A DNA stretch of 64,000 bases from Candidatus Binataceae bacterium (GTDB taxonomy: Bacteria; Desulfobacterota; Binatia; Binatales; Binataceae). Below are positions 30,525 to 41,960 of the stretch, in pieces. A program made the position numbers and the translations under genes. The stretch spans positions 76,513 to 140,512 of the forward strand of contig DATGIT010000010.1 in NCBI GenBank assembly GCA_035295545.1, read 5' to 3'. Every line of letters starts with the position of its first letter. Positions within the stretch are counted from its first letter, which is position 1. The notes below the pieces were generated by a model. It had not been told where the DNA came from, did not search any database, and saw only the letters and a program-made list of their open reading frames with translations.

Positions 30525-31488
30525 TTCCGCCGCCCGGGATGGGCGCGTGAGTTCGCGCGCGACGGGGATCGCGATGGCTGCGCTGTGCATGGTGACGGCC
30601 GCGACGCAGCCCGCCCTGATGCGCTTCGGCGCGACCCGGCTCGATCCGATGCTGTTCGCGGCCGGATGCGCGACCGTCGCGGCGCTGTGCGTTCTGCCGG
30701 TGGTCTGCGCGCGCGGCGAGCTCGGGCTGCTGGTGAGCTCGCGTTACCTGCCACGCCTGCTGCTGGTTTCCACACTGGGCACGATTTTGACGACGCTGAT
30801 GCTCGTATTCGGTCTTCGGCGGATCGACGCCGTCGCCGGCACGCTGCTGCTGCAGAGCGAGCCGGTATATTCGTTGATGCTGGCGACGCTGTTCCTGGGC
30901 GAGCGCCCCAGGCCGCGCCAGCTCGCCGCCACCGCGATCGTCGTGACCGGAATCGTTTCGGCCGTCGGCGCGTCGCACGGCGCCTACTCTCCGGCATGGG
31001 CGGCGATGCTGGTGCTGGCGACGCCGCTGCTCTGGCAAACCTCCCACGTACTGTCGCTGCCGGTGATGCCGCCGCTGTCGGCGGTTTGCATGACCGGCGC
31101 CCGCTACGGCTATGCCGCGATTGTGCTCGTCGCGGTGCTTGTCGCCGCGCGCCCGGCTGCGCTGCTGCAGCTTCGCGATCCGACGGCGCTTGCGACCATC
31201 ATCGCCACCGGCGTTGTGTGTTATTTCCTCGCGACCCTGACCTGGTATGCGGCCATCAGCCGGCTGTCGCTGGCCTGGACTACCGCGCTGGTGATTCCCG
31301 GCATTCCGCTGCTCTCGCTGGTGTGCGCGATCGTGTTTCTGGGCGAGCATGCCACGATCCGCGACCTGATTGGAATTCTGCTCGCCATCTCGGGCGTGCT
31401 GCTGCTGGTGCTCGGCGGCGAGGGCGTGCGCAAGACCCCGACTGCCGTAGACGGAATGGCCGAGGCAATTCATCAGCCGATGAATTAG
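30517..31488 (+). CDS. EamA/DMT-family transporter
   Basis: Ten hydrophobic helices in two EamA-like halves. Start is uncertain; an internal Met is possible. Confidence 0.7.
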   Translation: MDDSAARDGRVSSRATGIAMAALCMVTAATQPALMRFGATRLDPMLFAAGCATVAALCVLPVVCARGELGLLVSSRYLPRLLLVSTLGTILTTLMLVFGLRRIDAVAGTLLLQSEPVYSLMLATLFLGERPRPRQLAATAIVVTGIVSAVGASHGAYSPAWAAMLVLATPLLWQTSHVLSLPVMPPLSAVCMTGARYGYAAIVLVAVLVAARPAALLQLRDPTALATIIATGVVCYFLATLTWYAAISRLSLAWTTALVIPGIPLLSLVCAIVFLGEHATIRDLIGILLAISGVLLLVLGGEGVRKTPTAVDGMAEAIHQPMN

Positions 31489-31620
31489 CCCTTCTCGCGG
31501 CCGAATAGGCATTGGCCGGCGGTCCGGTTTGACTAAGCCTCGAGGCTGGATTTAAGTGGCTCTGAATTCGCGACAGGCGCCCTCACTGCGCGCCCCGCGT
31601 TACAGTAAGGAGCATCGACG

Positions 31621-31824
31621 ATGGCTCGATTGGTCGAACACGAGCGCAACACGCCGTACGAAATTCCCGAGGGAACCGAGCTGCCCGTGTACATCTGCGC
31701 GTGCGGTCTTTCGAAAAACAAGCCCTTCTGCGATGGCTCGCACAAGCGAACCCGCGACGAAGAAAGCGGCGCGCTCTACTGCTATGATGACAAGGCTCGG
31801 ATAAAGATGGAAAAGAACTACTGA
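31621..31824 (+). CDS. CDGSH iron-sulfur domain protein (mitoNEET-like)
   Basis: [16 protein letters not shown] matches the C-x-C-x2-S-x3-P-x-CDGSH 2Fe-2S signature. 67 aa. Confidence 0.75.
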
Positions 31825-31998
31825 GCCGAAGATTGGCTGGCCGAGTCTACGCAACCGGTTCACGCTCACGCCGCGCCGGGACGAATGCTCGGAACGCTCT
31901 CGGCTGACGGCGCAAGGCGCGCTCGCGCCGCAGCAGCAATCGGACAGCTTTAGCAGTCATCGGCTCGTCCGATGCTTCCGGTCCGTTGAATCTGTATC

Positions 31999-33864
31999 TT
32001 GTTTGAGATGAATGACGGTGCGCCGGGTGCTGCGCGAGCCCCGCTGGATTCCGAGGCTTTAGCCGCACCCGCTGCGGCACCTGACCCAGAGCTCAACGGA
32101 GCACCCTCGGGTCTGGCGTGGTTCAGCGATCTGGCCGAGCCGCCGCTCTCTTTCCTGGTCCTGACCCTGGTCGGCTCCGCGCTTTTTCTGGTCAATTTAG
32201 GCGGTTATCCGCTCTACACGAAGGGTGAGCCGCGTGAAGCCGTAACAATCTTCAATATGCTTCACGGCGGCGGCTTTATCCTGCCGTTGCGCGCCGGCAT
32301 TGAGGTCCCGTCCAAGCCGCTGCTGATGCATTGGTTGGCCGCGATCATCTCGGTCGTGGCGGGCAGGGTGAGCGAATGGACTGTCAGGATGCCGTCGGCG
32401 CTGTTCGCAATCGGCGGGATGTTGGTTGCCTATCAGTACCTGCGTCGCCTGTATGACAATCGGATCGGGTTCCTCGCTGCGCTTATTCTCGGCACCTCGG
32501 TTCAGTATCTGCAGGCTGGCACGGGTGCACGCGTCGATATGACGCTCACCTTCTTTCTCGAGGTGGCGTTTTGCGAGTTCATCCTGATTGCCGAAGGGCT
32601 GACCGCACGCCGGCTGACGCTTTACTTCGCGGTGGCGATGGCGGTGCTCAGCAAAGGGCCGGTGGGGATATTGCTGCCGGGCCTGGTCGCGTTTGCGTGG
32701 ATCGCGTTCCAGGGACGATGGAGCATGCTGCGCGAACTGCACCTGGTGCGCGGCGCGGCGATCGTGCTGCTGCTGGCCGGCGGATGGTACCTGGCGGCGG
32801 CGCTCAAGGGCGGGATGCCCTTCGTGCACAAGCAGCTCCTGGCCGAGAATCTGTTTCGTTTCGTGCACGACGGGGCGTTTCGCGAGGGCCACGTGCATCC
32901 TTTCTATTACATGGAGGCGGCGTTGCTGATGGGCTTCATGCCGTGGACGCCGCTGCTGCTGATCGTTTTCGTTCAGGCGGCGCGCCGGCCGCGACCGATC
33001 GATTCGCGGCTGGCCTATCTGATGGTGTGGTTCATGGTCGTGCTGATCTTCTACAACCTGCCGCAGAGCAAGCGTGGCGTCTATCTCCTCGCGCTCTATC
33101 CGGCGCTGGCGGCATTGCTGGCGATCTATGTTGAGGCTGCGGCGCGCGTGCTCGACGTTTCGGGCCGCGCGATTCGATGGCTGGCGCATGGCGCGGCCGT
33201 GATCTTCGTGGTTGCCGGCGTGGACGGCCTGCTGGGCCTGGGGATGCTCGCCTTTGCCGAGCACGCGCTCGAGCTGCTACTGCGCAGCCTGCTGGTCGCA
33301 AACTATGACTTTGTTCCGCAACTGGTGCTGGCCGTCGCCGCGCATCCGTTTGTCGCAATGGAGCTGGGAGTCGCGTTGATTGCGGTGGGAGTCCTGAGCA
33401 CGCACGGACGGCAGACCGCCGAGCGGCTGTGCATGACGATTATCGGCGCAACGATCTGTCTTGCGCTGATCGCGAACCTTTTCGTGGTGCCGGCGCTGGC
33501 CAATGCGCTCACGCTCGCGCCGTTCACGCGCGAGGCGATGAACATCGTCGGCACGCACAGCGTCGGCTACATGGGGGCGCTTAACTACGACGTCGCATTC
33601 TATGCCGAGCGCAATCTGCCGGTCGTTTCGATCTGGGGCGGCCCGCGCCCTGATTACCTCATTGCCTGGCGCGAGGAATTCATGCGGCTTCCGGCGGCGG
33701 TCCGCGAGCAGTTTCGGGCAGTTCTGGTAAGTCATCCGACCGAAGTTGACGGCTCCGGAGGGATGTTGCTGCTGCGCTGCGAGCCGGGCCACGGGGCGCA
33801 GGCGCCCGAAGCGCCCGATGCCGCGCCACGCCGTGGAAAGGAGCCTCCGCGGTTCGACGTTTAG
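31999..33864 (+). CDS. Glycosyltransferase family 39/83 (ArnT/PMT-like) membrane protein
   Basis: N-terminal GT-C fold with extracytoplasmic loop motif (YTKGEPREAVTIFNMLHGG...PSKPLLMHW) and more than 12 TM helices. Confidence 0.75.
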   Translation: MFEMNDGAPGAARAPLDSEALAAPAAAPDPELNGAPSGLAWFSDLAEPPLSFLVLTLVGSALFLVNLGGYPLYTKGEPREAVTIFNMLHGGGFILPLRAGIEVPSKPLLMHWLAAIISVVAGRVSEWTVRMPSALFAIGGMLVAYQYLRRLYDNRIGFLAALILGTSVQYLQAGTGARVDMTLTFFLEVAFCEFILIAEGLTARRLTLYFAVAMAVLSKGPVGILLPGLVAFAWIAFQGRWSMLRELHLVRGAAIVLLLAGGWYLAAALKGGMPFVHKQLLAENLFRFVHDGAFREGHVHPFYYMEAALLMGFMPWTPLLLIVFVQAARRPRPIDSRLAYLMVWFMVVLIFYNLPQSKRGVYLLALYPALAALLAIYVEAAARVLDVSGRAIRWLAHGAAVIFVVAGVDGLLGLGMLAFAEHALELLLRSLLVANYDFVPQLVLAVAAHPFVAMELGVALIAVGVLSTHGRQTAERLCMTIIGATICLALIANLFVVPALANALTLAPFTREAMNIVGTHSVGYMGALNYDVAFYAERNLPVVSIWGGPRPDYLIAWREEFMRLPAAVREQFRAVLVSHPTEVDGSGGMLLLRCEPGHGAQAPEAPDAAPRRGKEPPRFDV

Positions 33865-34113
33865 CGGCCAAAGAGAAAGGCACGTGAGAGCCTGAGAAAA
33901 CCTGCGCTGTAGTTTCGCGCCCGCAGTCGCGATCAGCGTGACACGCGGCTGTGCACCGGTTTTAGGTTCAGCTCCGGTTCAGCCGCAGGATGTACATTCG
34001 TCCCGCCCGAGAATAGAATAAATCCTGCTCGTCTTCGGATACGGTCCATCCCAGACCACCACGGGGTTGCCTGCTGGGACAATCCGAACTGCTGTGAGTC
34101 GCAAGGAGGTCGG

Positions 34114-34395
34114 GTGATGCCCAAGGTGTATGTCGGTAATCTTGCCAGTTCGGTTACCAGCGGTGACCTCCTGGAGCATTTTTCGCGCGCCGGAGAAGTC
34201 CTGGGAGCGCTGGCGGTCACGGATAAGGCATCCGGCATGTGCCGCGGGTTCGGCTTTGTCGAGATGGCCGAACCCTCTGATGTTGCACTCGCGTTCAGCC
34301 TGCTGAACAACACGCCCCTCAACGGACAACTGATAAAGATTGAACCTCATCCCGCGCTGCGCAACGGCAAAGCGCGCAAGGGTGCGGTCGCCTGA
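34114..34395 (+). CDS. RRM-domain RNA-binding protein
   Basis: RNP-2 (VYVGNL) and RNP-1 (RGFGFVEM) motifs. 93 aa. Strong SD (AGGAGG). Confidence 0.8.
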   Translation: MMPKVYVGNLASSVTSGDLLEHFSRAGEVLGALAVTDKASGMCRGFGFVEMAEPSDVALAFSLLNNTPLNGQLIKIEPHPALRNGKARKGAVA

Positions 34396-34440
34396 CAGCG
34401 GATCCACACAAGGCCGTGAAAAGCGCGGCGGGAGAACTCA

Positions 34441-34719
34441 ATGCCGGAGACCAAATGGGCGACGCACGACTTCGCGGTCAAGATGCTCGACTGGTCCGCG
34501 GCGCGCGGCTCGCGACTGGCGTATAGCTGCCGCAGGTGCGGGCGCATGTTCTGTCTCTTCTCGCTGGTGAGTCGCGATGCGTGGGCAATCGACGGGAAGG
34601 GGCGGCCGCTCGACAGCTTGATCAGCAACCGCTGGCTGGCTGAAGCGTGCCCCCGTTCTTTCAGCGCCAACGATGACGAGGATCGAAAGCGATTGTCTGC
34701 GTCCGGGCCGCGCTCCTAG
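34441..34719 (+). CDS. Small hypothetical protein with CxxC motif
   Basis: 92-aa ORF (YSCRRCGRMFCLF) downstream of the RRM gene. No other support. Confidence 0.3.
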   Translation: MPETKWATHDFAVKMLDWSAARGSRLAYSCRRCGRMFCLFSLVSRDAWAIDGKGRPLDSLISNRWLAEACPRSFSANDDEDRKRLSASGPRS

Positions 34720-34989
34720 CTTTTATAATCCTCAGCGAAGGATGGCGCCCCTCATTGGTCTCGGCGGGACATTAGAGCAATCGCTTCCTAACGACATCGA
34801 TCACCGGGCAGTTGGTTGCCGTTTGTAGCATGGCGCTTGATTGTCGGGACACTTATATATAGCGTTCTTGCAAGCCAATCGTTGGCTTAAGCGCGTGGGT
34901 TCACGCGCCATCACCTTTCAAATCCCTCAGAACCTTTCGTTCGGCTCATCGCCCGACCTGAATCCACTGGCTCTGAAAATGGAGTCCCC

Positions 34990-36246
34990 TTGTCCTTTTC
35001 TGAATTGTCCCTGTCTCCCGCAATCCTGGAGTCGGTGCGCCGCCGCGGCCATCAGCGGCCCGCGCCAATCCAGTCCGCCGCCATACCGGTGGTGCTCTCA
35101 GGCCGCGATTTGATAGCCACCGCAGCCACCGGCAGCGGAAAAACCGCAGCCTTTCTGTTGCCGATCCTCGACCGCCTCCATCGCAATCCTGCTCGCGCAA
35201 TAAGCGCCTTGCTGCTCGCGCCGACCCGCGAACTCGCTTCTCAGATCGCGCGCGAATTCGAGCTTCTTTCCGTCAGTGCTCGCGTGCGCGCGGTCGTGAT
35301 CGTCGGCGGCGAATCGATGGATCGGCAAATTCGCGAGATAAGGAGCGGCGTGCAGGTCGTGGTCGCGTGTCCGGGCCGCCTCGTCGATCATCTCGAACGC
35401 GGCACCATCAAGCTCGACCAGGTCGAAGTGCTGGTCATCGATGAAGCGGACCGGATGCTCGACATGGGCTTCCTTCCGCAACTGCGCCGGGTGCTGCGCG
35501 CGGTCAGGAAGCCGCGGCAGAGCCTGATGTTCTCGGCGACGATGGACCGCGAAGTCGAGCGCGTCGCGCGCGAGTTTCTGAGCGATCCGGTGCGCGTGCG
35601 CATGAACGACACGGCGACGCCTCCCAAGGCCATCCGCCAGGCGGTCTATCCGGTGACCCCGGAGAACAAGGCGCAGACCCTGTTGGGTTTGCTTCGCCGC
35701 GGCGACGTCGCCTCGGCGATCGTCTTCGCGCGAACGCGCAGCCGGGCGGACAGGGTGACAAAGCTGCTGGCACGAAACCGCGTCAGTGTGGTGGCGATTC
35801 ATGGGGGCCGGTCCCAGAATCAGCGCAATGCCGCGCTGGCCGGTTTTCGCAGCGGCCACTATGCAGTGCTGGTTGCGACCGATATCGCCGCGCGCGGCCT
35901 CGATATCCCCGGCGTTTCGCACGTGGTCAATTTCGACCTGCCTGAGACGCCCGATGCCTATGTCCATCGAATCGGCAGAACGGCCAGGATGGGCAAGTCG
36001 GGCGAGGCTGTGAGCCTGGCGGCACCGGAGGATGCGGGCGCGCTGCGCGGGATCGAGCGCAGCCTGGGAGTCAGGCTCGAGCGCGCGAGCATGAGCGGAA
36101 TTGCGATGCCGGTTCTCGCCGGCGCGTCCGAGCCGGCGGCCCGCCAATCGATAGCATCCCATCCCTGCGGGGGCGCCCACCGGAAGAACTCCGGCTCCAT
36201 CACTCCAAAGGAAAGGAGTTCATCCGGATGGAGACGCCGCGCCTGA
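34990..36246 (+). CDS. DEAD-box ATP-dependent RNA helicase
   Basis: Q-motif (GHQRPAPIQ), motif I (ATGSGKTAAF), DEAD (VIDEADRMLDMGF), SAT, and motif VI (HRIGRTAR). TTG start. Long AT-richer 5' leader. Confidence 0.9.
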   Translation: MSFSELSLSPAILESVRRRGHQRPAPIQSAAIPVVLSGRDLIATAATGSGKTAAFLLPILDRLHRNPARAISALLLAPTRELASQIAREFELLSVSARVRAVVIVGGESMDRQIREIRSGVQVVVACPGRLVDHLERGTIKLDQVEVLVIDEADRMLDMGFLPQLRRVLRAVRKPRQSLMFSATMDREVERVAREFLSDPVRVRMNDTATPPKAIRQAVYPVTPENKAQTLLGLLRRGDVASAIVFARTRSRADRVTKLLARNRVSVVAIHGGRSQNQRNAALAGFRSGHYAVLVATDIAARGLDIPGVSHVVNFDLPETPDAYVHRIGRTARMGKSGEAVSLAAPEDAGALRGIERSLGVRLERASMSGIAMPVLAGASEPAARQSIASHPCGGAHRKNSGSITPKERSSSGWRRRA

Positions 36247-37115
36247 TGTTCCGCGAGATCGAATCGCCGGCGAACAGTCGCCGCATCTCGGCTCCCGCAT
36301 CCGAGTGGCCGTGGTGGCGGACCACCCGGCAGGACTGGATGATTCTGCCCTGGGTGATTCTGATTCACGCCACCGCGCTTGCCGGTCTGATTATGTTCCC
36401 GCTGCCGGGTTGGCATATCGTACTGGGCGCGGCGGCAATCGCATGGCTGGGCGGAATCGGCACCACCGTCGGCTATCATCGCGCGATCGCTCATCGCGCC
36501 CTGCGGCCGCATCCTGCAGTTCGTTCGATATTGATCTTTTTCGCGATGTTCAACGGGTCAGGCGCGCCCAGCACGTGGGCGGCAAGCCATCGCGTGCATC
36601 ATGCGAATGCGGACACGCTCGACGACGTGTCGAGTCCCGCGCTGCACGGATTCTGGTGGGCTCATCTGCGATGGTTGTGGCAGGTGGAACCGCCTTCAGT
36701 GGAGCGCTACTGCCCCGATCTGGATCGTGTTTCATATCGAATCTGGCGTCATCTCCAGCCCGCGATCCTGACGCTGTCCTACTTCGGCGGACTGTATTTC
36801 GGTCTCGCGGCATTCTTCTGGGTGGGCGCCATCCGTCTGGTGTTTTCGCTTCACGCCCAATGCTTCGTGAACAGCGTCTGTCATAGCCGCCCCGATACTC
36901 CGTTTGGAGAGGATTCGAGCCGCAACGTGAGATGGCTCGCCGTTATGCATTTCTTCCAGGGCGAGAACTGGCATCGCAATCATCACGCTCGTCCGGGCAT
37001 CGCGCGGCTGGGATGGGCCTGGCATCAGCCGGACGTCGGCTACGCGGTGATTTGTGTGCTCGAGATGCTCGGTATGGTCAGCGAGGTTCGACGGATCCGG
37101 CCGGTCCGGCCCTGA
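36228..37115 (+). CDS. Membrane acyl-CoA/acyl-lipid delta-9 desaturase (stearoyl-CoA desaturase family)
   Basis: Three His boxes (HRAIAHRA, HRVHHANAD, HNHHARP) and four TM helices. Confidence 0.8.
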   Translation: METPRLMFREIESPANSRRISAPASEWPWWRTTRQDWMILPWVILIHATALAGLIMFPLPGWHIVLGAAAIAWLGGIGTTVGYHRAIAHRALRPHPAVRSILIFFAMFNGSGAPSTWAASHRVHHANADTLDDVSSPALHGFWWAHLRWLWQVEPPSVERYCPDLDRVSYRIWRHLQPAILTLSYFGGLYFGLAAFFWVGAIRLVFSLHAQCFVNSVCHSRPDTPFGEDSSRNVRWLAVMHFFQGENWHRNHHARPGIARLGWAWHQPDVGYAVICVLEMLGMVSEVRRIRPVRP

Positions 37116-37155
37116 GGAGCAGTTTGCGGCCGAAGACCGGGAAGCAGGCCTGCAA

Positions 37156-37971
37156 ATGACAGAATCGATAAATCGAGGCGCTTACCGGGTCTACCTCGAC
37201 TTCCTCGAGACCGCGGAAAGAAAGCGACGCTGGAACATCTTCGACGATGTCCCATGGGACCGGCTGGACGCGGCGACAACGACCGAAGGCAGCGCCCAGT
37301 GCGTCGAGATTTTCTGTGCCGAGGAGCTCTACCTTCCGGACTACAGCGCAAAGGGTCTCGAACTCGTTCGTTCGAGATTCGGCATGGCCTGGTTCCAGAC
37401 TTGTTGGGCGTTCGAGGAGTCCAGGCATGGCCTGGTCTTTCGCGAGTACCTGACCCGTTCGGGCCTGCGATCGGAAGCCGAGGTCGAGGCCCTCGAGGCG
37501 AGCGTATTCGCCAAAACCTGGACACTACCGTTCGAAACCTGGCGCCAGATGGCATGCTACGGAGCTCTCCAGGAAGCCGTCACCTACGTTGCCTACAGGC
37601 TGCAGAGGGACAAGGCGCGCAGCGCGGGCGACACCGTGCTCGAGACGATCTTTCACTTGGTCGGGCGCGATGAAGCCGCGCACGCGGGATTCTACCGGGC
37701 CATCATCGGACTGGAACTCGCGCAGGACCGAGCAGCAACGATTGCCGACCTGGCGCACGTTCTTTCGTGCTTCAAAATGCCCGGCGACGGGCTCATCGCA
37801 GACTATCAACAACGGCTGCGAACGTCCGGAAGCGGGATAAGTCCCCGCGCGTTCATCGAACGCGTGGTCTCGCCGCTGTTGATCGCATTGCAGATAAGCC
37901 GCAGGGAATTCAAGCAAGCGCTGGGCACGCGCAGGGCGGATACCCGGATTGATTCGGCCGCCGCTCCCTGA
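37156..37971 (+). CDS. Soluble diiron acyl-ACP desaturase-like protein (ferritin-like)
   Basis: ATG at 37156 (MTESINRGAYRVYLDF...). Diiron ExxH motifs (EESRHG, DEAAHAG). The upstream part of the track ORF overlaps the membrane desaturase. Confidence 0.7.
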   Translation: MTESINRGAYRVYLDFLETAERKRRWNIFDDVPWDRLDAATTTEGSAQCVEIFCAEELYLPDYSAKGLELVRSRFGMAWFQTCWAFEESRHGLVFREYLTRSGLRSEAEVEALEASVFAKTWTLPFETWRQMACYGALQEAVTYVAYRLQRDKARSAGDTVLETIFHLVGRDEAAHAGFYRAIIGLELAQDRAATIADLAHVLSCFKMPGDGLIADYQQRLRTSGSGISPRAFIERVVSPLLIALQISRREFKQALGTRRADTRIDSAAAP

Positions 37972-38061
37972 TCGGCTTATCCAACGGGTTTGCCGCACCT
38001 GAAGCGTTCGGGGTTCCAACCGGCGCTTCGCGCCCGTCGCGGCTTCTGAAATAATTGTCGC

Positions 38062-39117
38062 GTGGCAAGATCGGCAAGCGTGGAGGCGGCGCTGGATGCG
38101 CTGCGGCGCGTGAACTATCCCGGCTACGCGACCGACGTCGTGTCGCTCGGCATCATCGAGGCGCTCGAACCGCTCGAAGCGCAAAGCGGCTTCGCCGTGA
38201 TCGTGCGGCAGGCATCCGCCAACGAGCGCGTGACGCACGAGCTGGCGAGCGCGATCGGCGCCGCGCTCAAGCGCGAACTCGGCGTGGCGCGCGTCGAGAT
38301 CAAGCTGCGCAAGCTCGAGGCCGAGCTGGGGGAAAAGACCGGACGCGTGCGTCTGCAGGGCACGCGCTACGTGGTCGCGGTGCTGAGCGGCAAGGGCGGC
38401 GTCGGCAAATCGACCGTCGCGGTCAACCTGGCCATGGCCCTGCATCGGCTCGGTATGTCCGTAGGGCTGATGGATGCCGATATTTATGGGCCGTCGGTGC
38501 CGCTGATGTTCGGTGCGGGCGGGGAGCGGCCGAAGAGCGCCGGCGGGCAGAATTTTTATCCGGTCGAGCGCTATGGCGTGAAGCTCATCTCGATGGGCTT
38601 TTTCCTCACCGACAAGTCACCGGTCATCTGGCGCGGCCCGATGGTGATGGGCGCGGTGCGCCAGTTCCTTACGGATACACTCTGGGGCACCCAGGATTTT
38701 CTCGTCGTGGACCTGCCTCCGGGCACCGGCGATGCACAGCTCACGCTCGCTCAGCAGGTGGCGCTGGACGGGGCCGTGATCGTGACCACGCCGCAGGATG
38801 TCGCCCTGCTGGACGCGGCGCGGGCGGTCAAAATGCTCAATCAGTTGCACTGCCCGTTGATCGGGGTGGTCGAGAACATGAGCGGCTTCGTCTGCCCCGA
38901 GTGCGGCGAACGCGACGAACTGTTCGGTTCCGGGGGCGGAGCGAAGCTCGCAATGGAGGAGAGCACGCGGCTGCTCGCGCGGATACCGATCGAGCTCGCG
39001 GTGCGCGAGGCGGGCGATGCGGGCAGGCCCATTGTGCTCACGAATCCCGAGCATCCGGCGAGCCACGCCTTCATGCAAGTGGCGCAAGCTGTCCTGGCCG
39101 CGATGCCCAAGGATTAG
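38062..39117 (+). CDS. apbC: Mrp/NBP35-family Fe-S cluster carrier ATPase
   Basis: Deviant Walker A (SGKGGVGKST), CxxC (CPECG), and N-terminal DUF59-like domain. Confidence 0.85.
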   Translation: MARSASVEAALDALRRVNYPGYATDVVSLGIIEALEPLEAQSGFAVIVRQASANERVTHELASAIGAALKRELGVARVEIKLRKLEAELGEKTGRVRLQGTRYVVAVLSGKGGVGKSTVAVNLAMALHRLGMSVGLMDADIYGPSVPLMFGAGGERPKSAGGQNFYPVERYGVKLISMGFFLTDKSPVIWRGPMVMGAVRQFLTDTLWGTQDFLVVDLPPGTGDAQLTLAQQVALDGAVIVTTPQDVALLDAARAVKMLNQLHCPLIGVVENMSGFVCPECGERDELFGSGGGAKLAMEESTRLLARIPIELAVREAGDAGRPIVLTNPEHPASHAFMQVAQAVLAAMPKD

Positions 39118-39536
39118 CGCGCGAAGCCGTCCGGCGGCAGGCGACGGTATGTCGCGCGCCGCCCGCAAATCGCGGTCTGTCGCGTGCGAAGAGCCCGCGT
39201 CGTCACTCATCGAGCAATTGCTGGAAGCGTGGCGCGCAGCGCGGGAGGCTGCGGCGGCCCGCTCGCAGTGAAAACCGGAAGCCATCATTGAGGGTCAGGT
39301 GATTACTGGCATGGGTTCGCGGCGCGGAGCTAAGATCGTTGAGTCCGAGACCCGCCAAGGGGCGCAAAGCGGCCCGTGGCGGCTGTGAGCAACCGGTTCC
39401 AGGCCAATTTACTTTGCTGCCGCGCTCCTATAAAAACTCAGGCACTATCAGTTCCGCTTATCTTTCGGGGCTGCACCGCGCGGGTCATCCCCGGACGATA
39501 CCTGCGCGCAACCGGGGGTGAATTGAGAAGAGGGAC

Positions 39537-40640
39537 ATGGCGAAGATTCGCGTAGCGATCGTTGGAGTGGGCAACTGCGCATCCTCTCTCCTCCAGGGAC
39601 TCGAGTTCTATAAGCATGCCCCGGCCAAGGCGCAGTCGAGCCCGGTCGGCCTGATGCATTACGACCTCGCCGGGTATAAGCCAGGCGATATCGAGGTCGC
39701 ATGCGCTTTTGACGTGGATTCGCGCAAGGTTGGTCGGCCGCTCGAGGACGCCTGCTTCGCGCCACCCAACAACACCATCACCATATGGCGCGATCTGCCG
39801 CGCTACGGCGTCACCGTCGAAATGGGCGAGATCCACGACGGCGTGGCCGAGCATATGTCTCAGTATCCGCCGGAATGGAGCTTCGTCCCGGCGCGCGAAC
39901 AGCCGGTCGATATCGAGCGGCGCCTGCGCGAGAGCGGGGCCGAGGTGATGCTGTGTTACCTTCCGGTCGGCAGTCAGAGGGCGGTCGAGCGCTATGCCCG
40001 CGCCTGTCTCACCACCGGGGTGAGCCTGCTCAACTGCATGCCGGTATTCATCGTCTCGAATGAAAAGTGGGCGGCCGAATTCACCGAACGCAAAATTCCG
40101 GTGATCGGCGACGACGTCAAGTCGCAGCTCGGCTCGACCATACTGCATCGCACGATCATGAAGCTGTTCGCCGATCGCGGAATCAAGGTGCGGCACACTT
40201 ACCAGCTCAACACCGGCGGCAATACCGACTTTCTCAACATGCTCGACCGCTCGCGCCTGGGTTCCAAGCGCAAGTCCAAGACTGAGGCGGTGCAGAGCGT
40301 GATGCCCGAGCGATTGCCCGACGCGGACGTGCATATCGGACCGTCGGATTTCGTGGCCTGGCAGCGCGACAACAAGGTCTGCTTTCTGCGCATCGAGGGC
40401 GAAGGCTTCGCCGGCATCCCGATCGAGCTGGAGCTTCGGATGTCGGTGCAGGACTCGCCCAATTCGGGCGGGGTCGTGATCGACGGGATTCGCTGCCTCA
40501 AGCTCGCGCGCGATCGTAAGATCGGCGGGCCGCTGTATTCGATCGCCGCCTACACGATGAAGCATCCGCCGCGTCAGATTCCCGACGATATCGCGCGCGA
40601 GCGTGTCGAGAAATTCATCAGCGGCGAGATCGAACGCTAG
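39537..40640 (+). CDS. myo-Inositol-3-phosphate synthase
   Basis: N-terminal Rossmann (IRVAIVGVGNCASSLLQG) and conserved MIPS catalytic region. 367 aa, prokaryotic type. Confidence 0.85.
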   Translation: MAKIRVAIVGVGNCASSLLQGLEFYKHAPAKAQSSPVGLMHYDLAGYKPGDIEVACAFDVDSRKVGRPLEDACFAPPNNTITIWRDLPRYGVTVEMGEIHDGVAEHMSQYPPEWSFVPAREQPVDIERRLRESGAEVMLCYLPVGSQRAVERYARACLTTGVSLLNCMPVFIVSNEKWAAEFTERKIPVIGDDVKSQLGSTILHRTIMKLFADRGIKVRHTYQLNTGGNTDFLNMLDRSRLGSKRKSKTEAVQSVMPERLPDADVHIGPSDFVAWQRDNKVCFLRIEGEGFAGIPIELELRMSVQDSPNSGGVVIDGIRCLKLARDRKIGGPLYSIAAYTMKHPPRQIPDDIARERVEKFISGEIER

Positions 40641-40727
40641 CCGCCGTCCGCAGCCGGGCGCCGGTGTCGGCGCTTGCGCGCCACCCCCTTTCTCCGCGGT
40701 GCAGCGGCGCCGTAGAATCGGTCCACG

Positions 40728-41960
40728 ATGGGCGCGCTCAAGGACAAGACGATCGTAGTGGGCGTATGCGGCGGTATCGCCGCCTACAAAGCCGCCGAAC
40801 TCGTGCGTTTGCTGGTCAGCGAGCAGGCACGGGTGCGCGTGATGATGTCGCGCAATGCCGCGCAGTTCATCACGCCACTCACGCTGCAGACGCTGAGCGC
40901 CAATCCGGTTGCGACCGACACCTTCAGCCTCACCGAGGAATCCGAAATCGGCCATATCCGCCTCGCCGACAGCGCCGACGCGATCGTGATCGCGCCGGCG
41001 TCCGCCGACGTGATTGCCAAGGCCGCAACCGGCATCGCCGACGACCTTCTCACCACTGTGTTGCTGGCGGCGCAATGTCCGATCGCCTTTGCGCCGGCGA
41101 TGAACGTGCACATGTACGCCCATCCGACCGTGGTCGAAAACCTGGCCCGGCTGCGCTCGCGCGGGGTGACGGTTGTCGAGCCCGCCTCGGGCGATCTCGC
41201 GTGCGGCTATCAGGGCAAGGGGCGCTTGCCCGAACCGGCGGCGATCGTCGAGGAACTGCAGCGGATGCTCTCGGCGCGCGACCTTGGCGCCGAGCGCATC
41301 CTGGTGACGGCGGGCCCGACACAGGAGATGATCGACCCGGTGCGCTTCGTCTCGAATCGATCGACCGGCAAGATGGGCTTCGCGATCGCGCGCGCGGCGT
41401 GGCGGCGCGGCGCGAGTGTCAGGCTCATCGCCGGCCCGTCGCCGCTCGCAACGCCGCACGGCGTCGAGCGCATCGATACGGTGAGCGCGGCCGAGATGCT
41501 GAACGCGACCGCGCGCAATTTTCCCTGGAGTACGGCGCTGGTGATGGCGGCGGCGGTGGCGGACTTCCGCCCGCGCACGCCAGCGGCGCACAAGATCAAG
41601 AAAAACGCGCGCGGGATGACGCTCGAGCTCGAGGGTATCGCGGATGAAATGCCGCGGCTGAGCGCGCGCAAGGGCTCGCGCATCGTGATCGGCTTTGCCG
41701 CCGAGACCCAGGGCCTCGAGGAAAACGCCGCCGAAAAGCTACGCCGCAAGCGGCTGGATTTCATAGTGGCCAACGACGTCTCACGTGCCGACGCCGGCTT
41801 CGCCGTGGACACCAACGTGGTCACGATCGTCGGCGAAGACGGCCGCGCGGTCGAGCATCCCAAGCTCAGCAAGGACGAGGTCGCCGACGTCATCCTCGAT
41901 CGGCTGCTGGCCGTGCGCGCAGCCAAGGCCGGCCGCCGCGCGCTGCGCGCCGTGCGCTAG
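40728..41960 (+). CDS. coaBC: Bifunctional phosphopantothenoylcysteine decarboxylase / phosphopantothenate-cysteine ligase
   Basis: Flavoprotein domain (VGVCGGIAAYKAAELVRLL) plus DFP CTP-dependent ligase domain. 410 aa. Confidence 0.9.
   Translation: MGALKDKTIVVGVCGGIAAYKAAELVRLLVSEQARVRVMMSRNAAQFITPLTLQTLSANPVATDTFSLTEESEIGHIRLADSADAIVIAPASADVIAKAATGIADDLLTTVLLAAQCPIAFAPAMNVHMYAHPTVVENLARLRSRGVTVVEPASGDLACGYQGKGRLPEPAAIVEELQRMLSARDLGAERILVTAGPTQEMIDPVRFVSNRSTGKMGFAIARAAWRRGASVRLIAGPSPLATPHGVERIDTVSAAEMLNATARNFPWSTALVMAAAVADFRPRTPAAHKIKKNARGMTLELEGIADEMPRLSARKGSRIVIGFAAETQGLEENAAEKLRRKRLDFIVANDVSRADAGFAVDTNVVTIVGEDGRAVEHPKLSKDEVADVILDRLLAVRAAKAGRRALRAVR

Follow-up and report, generated by a model that had tools for sequence, protein, structure and literature searches.

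In Bacteroides thetaiotaomicron, the BT1884-BT1887 operon combines csp, a DEAD/DEAH helicase, a nitronate monooxygenase and rbpB; proteins of the RRM-1 type (RRM, RNA recognition motif) are cold-induced in this species and needed for growth in the cold, and the feedback regulation of the rbp genes acts partly via 5' untranslated regions (5'UTRs) of 122-155 nucleotides (nt) (PMC13370968). The massively cold-induced operons of Streptomyces coelicolor consist of csp, a small gene which is either of unknown function or of the CBS type, and a DEAD-box helicase; they carry stem-loops which mask the ribosome-binding site, and a des gene is co-induced (bioRxiv 10.1101/2025.04.11.648403). In Synechocystis, the tail-less type II RNA-binding protein Rbp3 maintains the desA/B/D transcripts (PMC7292030), and CrhR binds its own mRNA and is regulated through its own 5' region (bioRxiv 10.1101/2021.03.26.437152). 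The present study concerns a locus from a metagenome-assembled genome (MAG) of Candidatus Binataceae, phylum Binatota (GCA_035295545.1, contig DATGIT010000010.1), in which genes for an RRM protein, a small Cys/His protein and a DEAD-box RNA helicase are followed by genes for two fatty-acid desaturases. The whole stretch of DNA analysed around it, 64,000 nt in length, is called the window.

We interpret these genes as a modular acclimation locus specific to Binataceae, composed of two adjacent transcription units and with cold as the most likely trigger, a reading to which we give an even chance. The functional coupling of the RNA-remodelling and desaturation genes is well supported by comparative evidence, because their linkage recurs among related genomes, the leader of the second unit is confined to these clusters, and the same leader is also found in front of desaturase genes. 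Cold, in turn, is proposed solely by analogy with Bacteroides, Streptomyces and Synechocystis, and the co-induction of the units, the nature of the signal and the function of the leader are likewise put forward here as proposals rather than observations. The original prediction, made from the letters of the window, had already described a co-regulated module of RNA remodelling and desaturation; gene identities, comparative synteny and the shared leader support it, and its cold label remains an analogy.

Five open reading frames (ORFs) on the + strand are present at the locus, four of them with clear domain matches. The listing of ORFs and the profile searches thus agree with the five co-directional genes described earlier, with two start codons corrected: the RRM gene begins at ATG 34117, as in all orthologues, instead of GTG 34114, and the soluble desaturase at ATG 37156 instead of GTG 37054, as indicated by gene calls and homologue lengths. 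The locus is made up of two adjacent units, each with a predicted, conserved sigma-70-like promoter and a conserved 5' leader for which a structure is predicted. The features, in window coordinates, are as follows.

33991..34019, + strand: predicted sigma-70-like promoter of the RRM unit (TGTACA, 17 nt, TAGAAT)
34019..34116, + strand: structured 5'UTR of the RRM gene (covariance model R2)
34117..34395, + strand: RRM-type RNA-binding protein, 92 amino acids (aa) (PF00076)
34441..34719, + strand: small92, a Cys/His protein of 92 aa (frame conservation, homologue clusters)
34837..34865, + strand: predicted sigma-70-like promoter of the helicase/desaturase unit (TTGATT, 17 nt, TAGCGT)
34861..34989, + strand: structured leader of the helicase unit, about 118-135 nt (six-locus alignment, model R1)
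34990..36246, + strand: DEAD-box RNA helicase, 418 aa, TTG start (PF00270, PF00271)
36228..37115, + strand: integral-membrane His-box fatty-acid desaturase, 295 aa (PF00487)
37156..37971, + strand: short soluble di-iron desaturase, 271 aa (PF03405)

The physical clustering of these genes, which had been called unusual, exceeds chance, and many related genomes show it in one of several arrangements. A scan anchored on the soluble desaturase yielded 80 loci, all from Binataceae-type MAGs, whose neighbours were read by tblastn; crude ORF calling and neighbour clustering, which are led astray by antisense ORFs in DNA so rich in GC (guanine plus cytosine), were used only for the contexts of unlinked paralogues. 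In 16 of the 80, which fall into two or more clades of the neighbour-joining tree of the soluble desaturase, the RRM gene lies co-directionally upstream; about 55 loci hold paralogues whose surroundings are unrelated. When metagenomes were scanned with small92 as anchor and the soluble-desaturase loci were added, 81 distinct small92 loci were obtained. Among the 73 with enough upstream sequence, 69 have the RRM gene within 200 nt upstream of small92, and helicase and/or desaturase genes follow within 1 kb in 28 of the 57 with at least 900 nt downstream, in at least six combinations.

The full five-gene order is found in five loci (the window, L003, L026, L049 and L091). Shorter versions run from the RRM gene and small92 to the membrane and then the soluble desaturase, or from the RRM gene and small92 to the soluble desaturase, and in L007 and L008 the soluble desaturase follows the RRM gene directly, at a distance of about 30 nt, which makes the co-transcription of the two very likely. 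A desaturase lies 30-96 nt from the RRM gene or small92, with neither leader nor promoter between them, in several genomes, and in L121 the genes are rearranged yet clustered, first helicase and membrane desaturase, then the RRM-like gene and small92. The comparison therefore describes the RRM gene and small92 as a tight dyad, for which the helicase/desaturase unit is a frequent, non-obligatory neighbour. Dispersal of the genes among close relatives, named in the original prediction as an outcome which would count against it, is found in part: about half of the RRM/small92 loci are without helicase and desaturases, whereas the linkage, where present, recurs in at least six architectures.

The leader of the helicase unit offers a second line of evidence. 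In an alignment of six loci, the last ~135 nt before the helicase are far better conserved than the coding sequence, and covariance model R1 finds the leader in 28 loci, all of them clusters of this kind, and in none of the 55 loci of unlinked soluble-desaturase paralogues; degenerate short forms occur in L097 and L105. The leader comprises hairpins at 34872-34888 and 34891-34908 and an invariant core which extends from CAGAACC (34928-34934) to AATCCACTGGCTCTG (to 34975). Under model R1, 90.6% of cells pair, compared with 22-51% in slid controls, and limited covariation is seen in the first hairpin and in an inner hairpin, so that the structure has moderate support. An invariant GCTCT (34970-34974) is able to pair with the Shine-Dalgarno sequence GGAG (34981-34984), which is predicted to be mostly paired in 16 orthologues (accessibility 0.00-0.35). 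In L032 and L011, which have no helicase, the leader stands immediately before the membrane and the soluble desaturase, respectively, and it is therefore ascribed to the operon and not to the helicase alone. In L021 (8468-8813), also without helicase, the distance from leader to membrane desaturase ORF is about 345 nt, and the intervening stretch may be the remnant of a deleted helicase gene.

Upstream of the leader, an arrangement TTGAyy-17-TAnnnT is kept at a fixed distance in nearly all of the 26 loci inspected, so that transcription of the helicase unit likely starts near 34872. The corresponding TTGATT-17-TAGCGT site of the window, which the promoter scan did not call, is accordingly a candidate promoter. 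A gap of 270 bp had been described as an AT-richer untranslated leader of the helicase; the AT-richer gap is real (34720-34989, GC 0.53 against 0.66 for the window), but the transcribed leader is estimated at about 118 nt, because only the last ~130 nt are conserved, behind the conserved promoter. A search of Rfam at a permissive threshold (E <= 1, positions 31000-41000) gave nothing, so that neither leader of the locus matches the cspA thermoregulator, ROSE, fourU or any other family. A likeness between the two leaders themselves (AATCC...CTG) was considered and found too weak.

These elements can be assembled into a mechanism. Unit 1 (promoter, ~95-nt 5'UTR, RRM gene and small92) would supply an RNA chaperone or regulator of small size and, with it, a dedicated Cys/His partner which probably binds zinc, and unit 2 (promoter, ~118-nt leader, helicase and two desaturases) would supply RNA unwinding and the O2-dependent introduction of cis double bonds in acyl chains. 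A stress which renders RNA structure as well as membranes stiffer, a drop in temperature being the most likely, would raise the expression of both units. The leader hairpin would hold the ribosome-binding site until the helicase, the RRM protein or both opened it, a step that would establish a feedback control, and the desaturases would then restore membrane fluidity. It is conceivable, albeit improbable, that the leader represents a new class of cis-regulatory RNA which gates the helicase/desaturase operon and is read by the RRM protein and small92. If this were true, the RNA-chaperone status of the cell would directly set membrane desaturation, and the pair formed by an RRM protein and a small Cys/His co-factor would be of a kind so far undescribed in bacteria.

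Several observations weigh against the proposed acclimation locus. The C-terminus of the RRM protein (...EPHPALRNGKARKGAVA) is without a glycine-rich tract, the tail by which class I cold-induced cyanobacterial Rbp proteins are recognised, and the window contains no cold-shock-domain gene. The covariation support for the helicase leader is modest, since most positions are invariant and the sequences assessed are also those from which the structure was derived. A simple RNA thermometer is unsupported, as the predicted accessibility of the Shine-Dalgarno sequence follows no consistent trend from 4 to 42 °C, in the window as in 15 orthologues. Moreover, the two units have separate promoters, 29 of the 57 small92 loci continue into unrelated genes, most soluble-desaturase paralogues are located away from the cluster, and L030 (6698-9879) carries leader, helicase and both desaturases with no RRM gene or small92 in the 6.7 kb upstream, from which it follows that the second unit is able to exist alone.

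This last group of observations, including the 29 loci without helicase and desaturases, at least 55 paralogues in other contexts and the solitary unit of L030, is also what would be expected from a lineage-specific synteny without shared control, in which unit 1 would serve general RNA metabolism and unit 2 would combine routine aerobic unsaturation with a housekeeping helicase. We judge such an explanation unlikely: the association outlasts rearrangement, as in L121, as well as the gain and loss of single genes, the short distances between RRM gene or small92 and a desaturase contain no separate leader or promoter in several genomes, and the leader is restricted to these clusters.

A different question is whether the same co-regulated module responds to a trigger other than cold, namely to oxygen or redox, osmotic or desiccation stress, all of which vary in soil and peat. 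This is possible, though we regard it as doubtful. Both desaturase families need O2, the crhR gene of Synechocystis follows, whatever the temperature, the redox state of the electron-transport chain, loss of Rbp3 alters salt tolerance via desaturase mRNAs, Bacteroides Rbp mutants are worst off under cold and oxygen stress combined, and the folding of the leader has no temperature trend. On the other hand, the well-studied pairings of a small RNA chaperone and a DEAD-box helicase in one operon are all cold-induced, and the induction of desaturases is a classic low-temperature response. The acclimation locus with cold as trigger is the reading retained in what follows.

Among the individual components, the RRM protein matches PF00076 (RRM_1) with 54.5 bits (gathering score 20.7, E 1e-14) and possesses a single RRM, with VYVGNL as RNP2 and RGFGFVEM as RNP1. 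Against the NCBIfam model NF058537 (Rbp_regulator) it scores 53.7 bits, below the cut-off of 100. Its gene is preceded by TGTACA-17-TAGAAT, the sole promoter-like site called by the scan of positions 33500-38500, and in about 45 related loci a T(G/A)TACTT ... TAnnnT arrangement precedes the RRM 5'UTR at an equal distance; the site is consequently expected to have promoter activity, with a predicted start of transcription near 34026. The 5'UTR, about 95 nt long, contains the Shine-Dalgarno sequence AAGGAGG (34103-34109) and a long-range stem in which TTCGGAT (34034-34040) pairs with ATCCGAA (34082-34088). Covariation is clear in this stem, which is closed by U-A in 27 sequences and by C-G in 11. 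Covariance model R2 recognises 73 sites, including window positions 34019-34122, all directly upstream of an RRM gene which precedes small92; 91% of cells pair at these sites against 12-49% in slid controls, and changes on both sides are found in 40 cells against 16.6 in shuffles.

A second RRM paralogue, with about 50% identity and in divergent orientation, is located just upstream of the RRM/small92 pair in many Binataceae loci (L004-L005, L017, L021, L026, L032, L049, L086, L091 and many others), for example on the minus strand at L086:5042-5359. This paralogue is never matched by the R2 5'UTR model. The window is without it and has a PMT_2 glycosyltransferase gene in that place.

The product of small92 has no match in Pfam or NCBIfam, no fold match and no match to zinc-finger profiles. 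Among 78 distinct homologues, 77 keep the sense frame open, compared with 35 and 31 for the antisense frames; the conservation of the frame, together with 201 database clusters, establishes small92 as a real gene, and an antisense ORF at 34347-34670, considered as an alternative, was rejected on frame conservation. The 201 clusters, defined at 90% identity, are all unnamed, and the few taxon labels present are Binataceae. In an alignment of 33 members, H9, C30, C33 and C70 are invariant, along with many other residues. A profile search of 1.8 billion representatives added about 100 further small unannotated relatives. C2H2 zinc-finger proteins were also matched, repeatedly but weakly, through the Y-x-C-x-x-C-G-x-x-F knuckle, which is the sole link to proteins of that type. 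The protein is probably a zinc-binding partner of the RRM protein. Five remote relatives from the profile search lie on short contigs, and only one of them adjoins an RRM gene, being encoded directly downstream of it (L171:1116-1937, 134 aa, profile E 4e-11).

The helicase matches the Pfam families DEAD (PF00270, E 1e-50) and Helicase_C (PF00271, E 1e-32) and has two RecA-like domains with all the expected motifs, i.e. the Q motif, I, Ia, Ib, II (DEAD), III (SAT), V and VI; the motif sequences include PTRELA, DEAD, SAT, ARGLD and HRIGRTAR, and the C-terminal tail is short and basic. Its TTG start at 34990 is kept in orthologues. The closest solved structure is that of Geobacillus CshA (5ivl, E 2e-89). 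However, none of the NCBIfam equivalog cut-offs for CsdA/DeaD, CshA, RhlE, SrmB and DbpA is reached, the scores and cut-offs being 398.9 and 646 for CshA, 368.8 and 743 for RhlE, 342.9 and 890 for CsdA, and 301 and 989 for DeaD (PRK11634). The designation of this protein as CsdA/CrhC-like is thus narrowed to that of a generic DEAD-box helicase, with the CsdA, CshA and RhlE equivalog cut-offs missed.

The membrane desaturase ORF overlaps the helicase stop by 19 nt, and AAGGAG is found 9 nt before its ATG. The protein matches PF00487 (FA_desaturase, E 2e-14) and aligns over residues 37-288 with mouse and human SCD1 (4ymk/4zyo, E 1e-11). It has the three His boxes and the NxxxH motif of such enzymes (HRAIAH 84-89, HRVHH 121-125, NSVCH 215-219, HRNHH 249-253) as well as two long hydrophobic regions (36-82 and 179-214). 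On this sequence evidence it is assigned to the stearoyl-coenzyme A (delta-9) desaturase fold, with delta-9 as its putative regiospecificity.

The soluble enzyme matches PF03405 (FA_desaturase_2) with 64.7 bits (cut-off 22.7, E 9e-18), in an alignment which covers only profile positions 100-236 of 325. The motifs EELYLPDY, EESRH, QEAVT and DEAAH supply the six expected di-iron ligands, and these (E57, E88/H91, E140 and E173/H176) are invariant in 23 homologues. Resemblance to plant desaturases acting on acyl-acyl carrier protein (acyl-ACP) is weak (25 bits, E 1e-4), and at 271 aa the protein is shorter than their ~340-360. A 100% identical database entry is named acyl-ACP desaturase, from Candidatus Binataceae. 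The enzyme is a distant and shortened member of the acyl-ACP desaturase family, with acyl-ACP as its putative substrate. In Binataceae the family forms several paralogue clades (paralogues at L014-L037, L041-L056 and L057-L082), often with two copies per genome, and three of the clades are found in other conserved neighbourhoods, without RRM gene or leader.

One or both of the desaturases could act away from bulk membrane acyl chains, on a specialised lipid or a secondary metabolite, and have no role in membrane fluidity. The distance of the soluble enzyme from characterised acyl-ACP desaturases, its length, shorter by ~70-90 aa, and its many paralogues per genome are compatible with another substrate, and diversification of reaction type is known for di-iron as well as His-box enzymes. 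Nevertheless, all iron ligands are conserved, and no polyketide synthase, non-ribosomal peptide synthetase or tailoring-enzyme genes are consistently adjacent, so that we consider this explanation very improbable.

With regard to base composition, part of the cluster had been described as lying in lower-GC sequence. This applies to the leader and, weakly, to the RRM gene (0.60), but not to the small ORF (0.65, with 0.83 at third codon positions). A foreign origin of the low-GC stretch was rejected, as low GC is limited to intergenic sequence and the genes have normal GC at their codon positions. A gene for a 67-aa CDGSH iron-sulfur protein lies at window positions 31621-31824, two genes before the cluster; the candidacy of this protein as electron donor is unsupported, since the gene adjoins the cluster in no other locus and is probably unrelated. 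On the other side, a 419-nt intergenic region (39118-39536, GC 0.65), without a match in Rfam, is located upstream of a myo-inositol-1-phosphate synthase gene.

The enzyme families at this locus are all known already, and so are cold operons in which a helicase accompanies a small RNA chaperone. What is new is the physical fusion with two desaturases, the lineage-restricted Cys/His protein beside the RRM gene, and two leaders absent from Rfam; neither this cluster nor the desaturases of Binatia were found described in literature searches. Recognition of bacterial RRM proteins as RNA chaperones of the cold-shock type is recent, and here one of them is tied physically, and in some relatives almost certainly transcriptionally, to a helicase and to enzymes of membrane fluidity. 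The host phylum is widespread and uncultured, and occurs in soil and peat. The lineage-restricted partner of the RRM protein, the two leaders outside Rfam and the pair of desaturases are offered as objects for testing. Should the link with cold be true, the cluster could mark the temperature acclimation of Binataceae in metatranscriptomes from soil-warming and permafrost studies.

Compared with known desaturase systems, the locus resembles mycobacteria, with soluble DesA1/DesA2 and membrane-bound DesA3, in that one bacterium has both a soluble desaturase of the PF03405 type and an SCD-like membrane desaturase; no mycobacterial structure was returned by a phmmer search with the soluble desaturase. 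The mycobacterial and plant stearoyl-ACP systems have iron-ligand motifs in common with the locus; the plant enzymes match the soluble enzyme with only 25 bits. To our knowledge, linkage to RNA-binding genes is undescribed for the mycobacterial DesA and plant desaturase systems, and our literature searches found none.

The likeness with Synechocystis is in the RRM protein without a glycine-rich tail, which in that organism is tied functionally to desaturase mRNA levels. In contrast with the present locus, the cyanobacterial genes are dispersed, crhR is paired with rimO, and the desaturases are acyl-lipid delta-12, omega-3 and delta-6 enzymes. No sequence similarity was found between the helicase leader and that of Synechocystis crhR, and the leader has no Rfam family.

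The Streptomyces operons are similar in their sequence of a chaperone, a small uncharacterised gene, a structured intergenic region masking the ribosome-binding site and a DEAD-box helicase, in their high G+C context and in having a desaturase within the response. They differ in that their chaperone has a cold-shock domain instead of an RRM, whereas in Binataceae the helicase unit has an apparent promoter of its own and the desaturases are joined to the helicase operon rather than placed at a separate locus.

In Bacteroides, as here, a single-RRM protein is clustered with a DEAD-box helicase and an oxygen-using enzyme, and the rbp 5'UTRs of more than 100 nt are involved in feedback. The Binataceae locus, from another phylum, is distinguished by the lack of a cold-shock-domain gene, by small92, which the Bacteroides operon does not have, by fatty-acid desaturases as its enzymes, by an RRM protein below the Rbp_regulator cut-off, and by a cold induction which is proposed by analogy. 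In three of the related loci (L086/L087/L104, 6546-7727) the RRM/small92 pair is followed not by desaturases but by a FAD-binding monooxygenase-like gene, which recalls the nitronate monooxygenase of the csp / DEAD / rbpB operon of Bacteroides.

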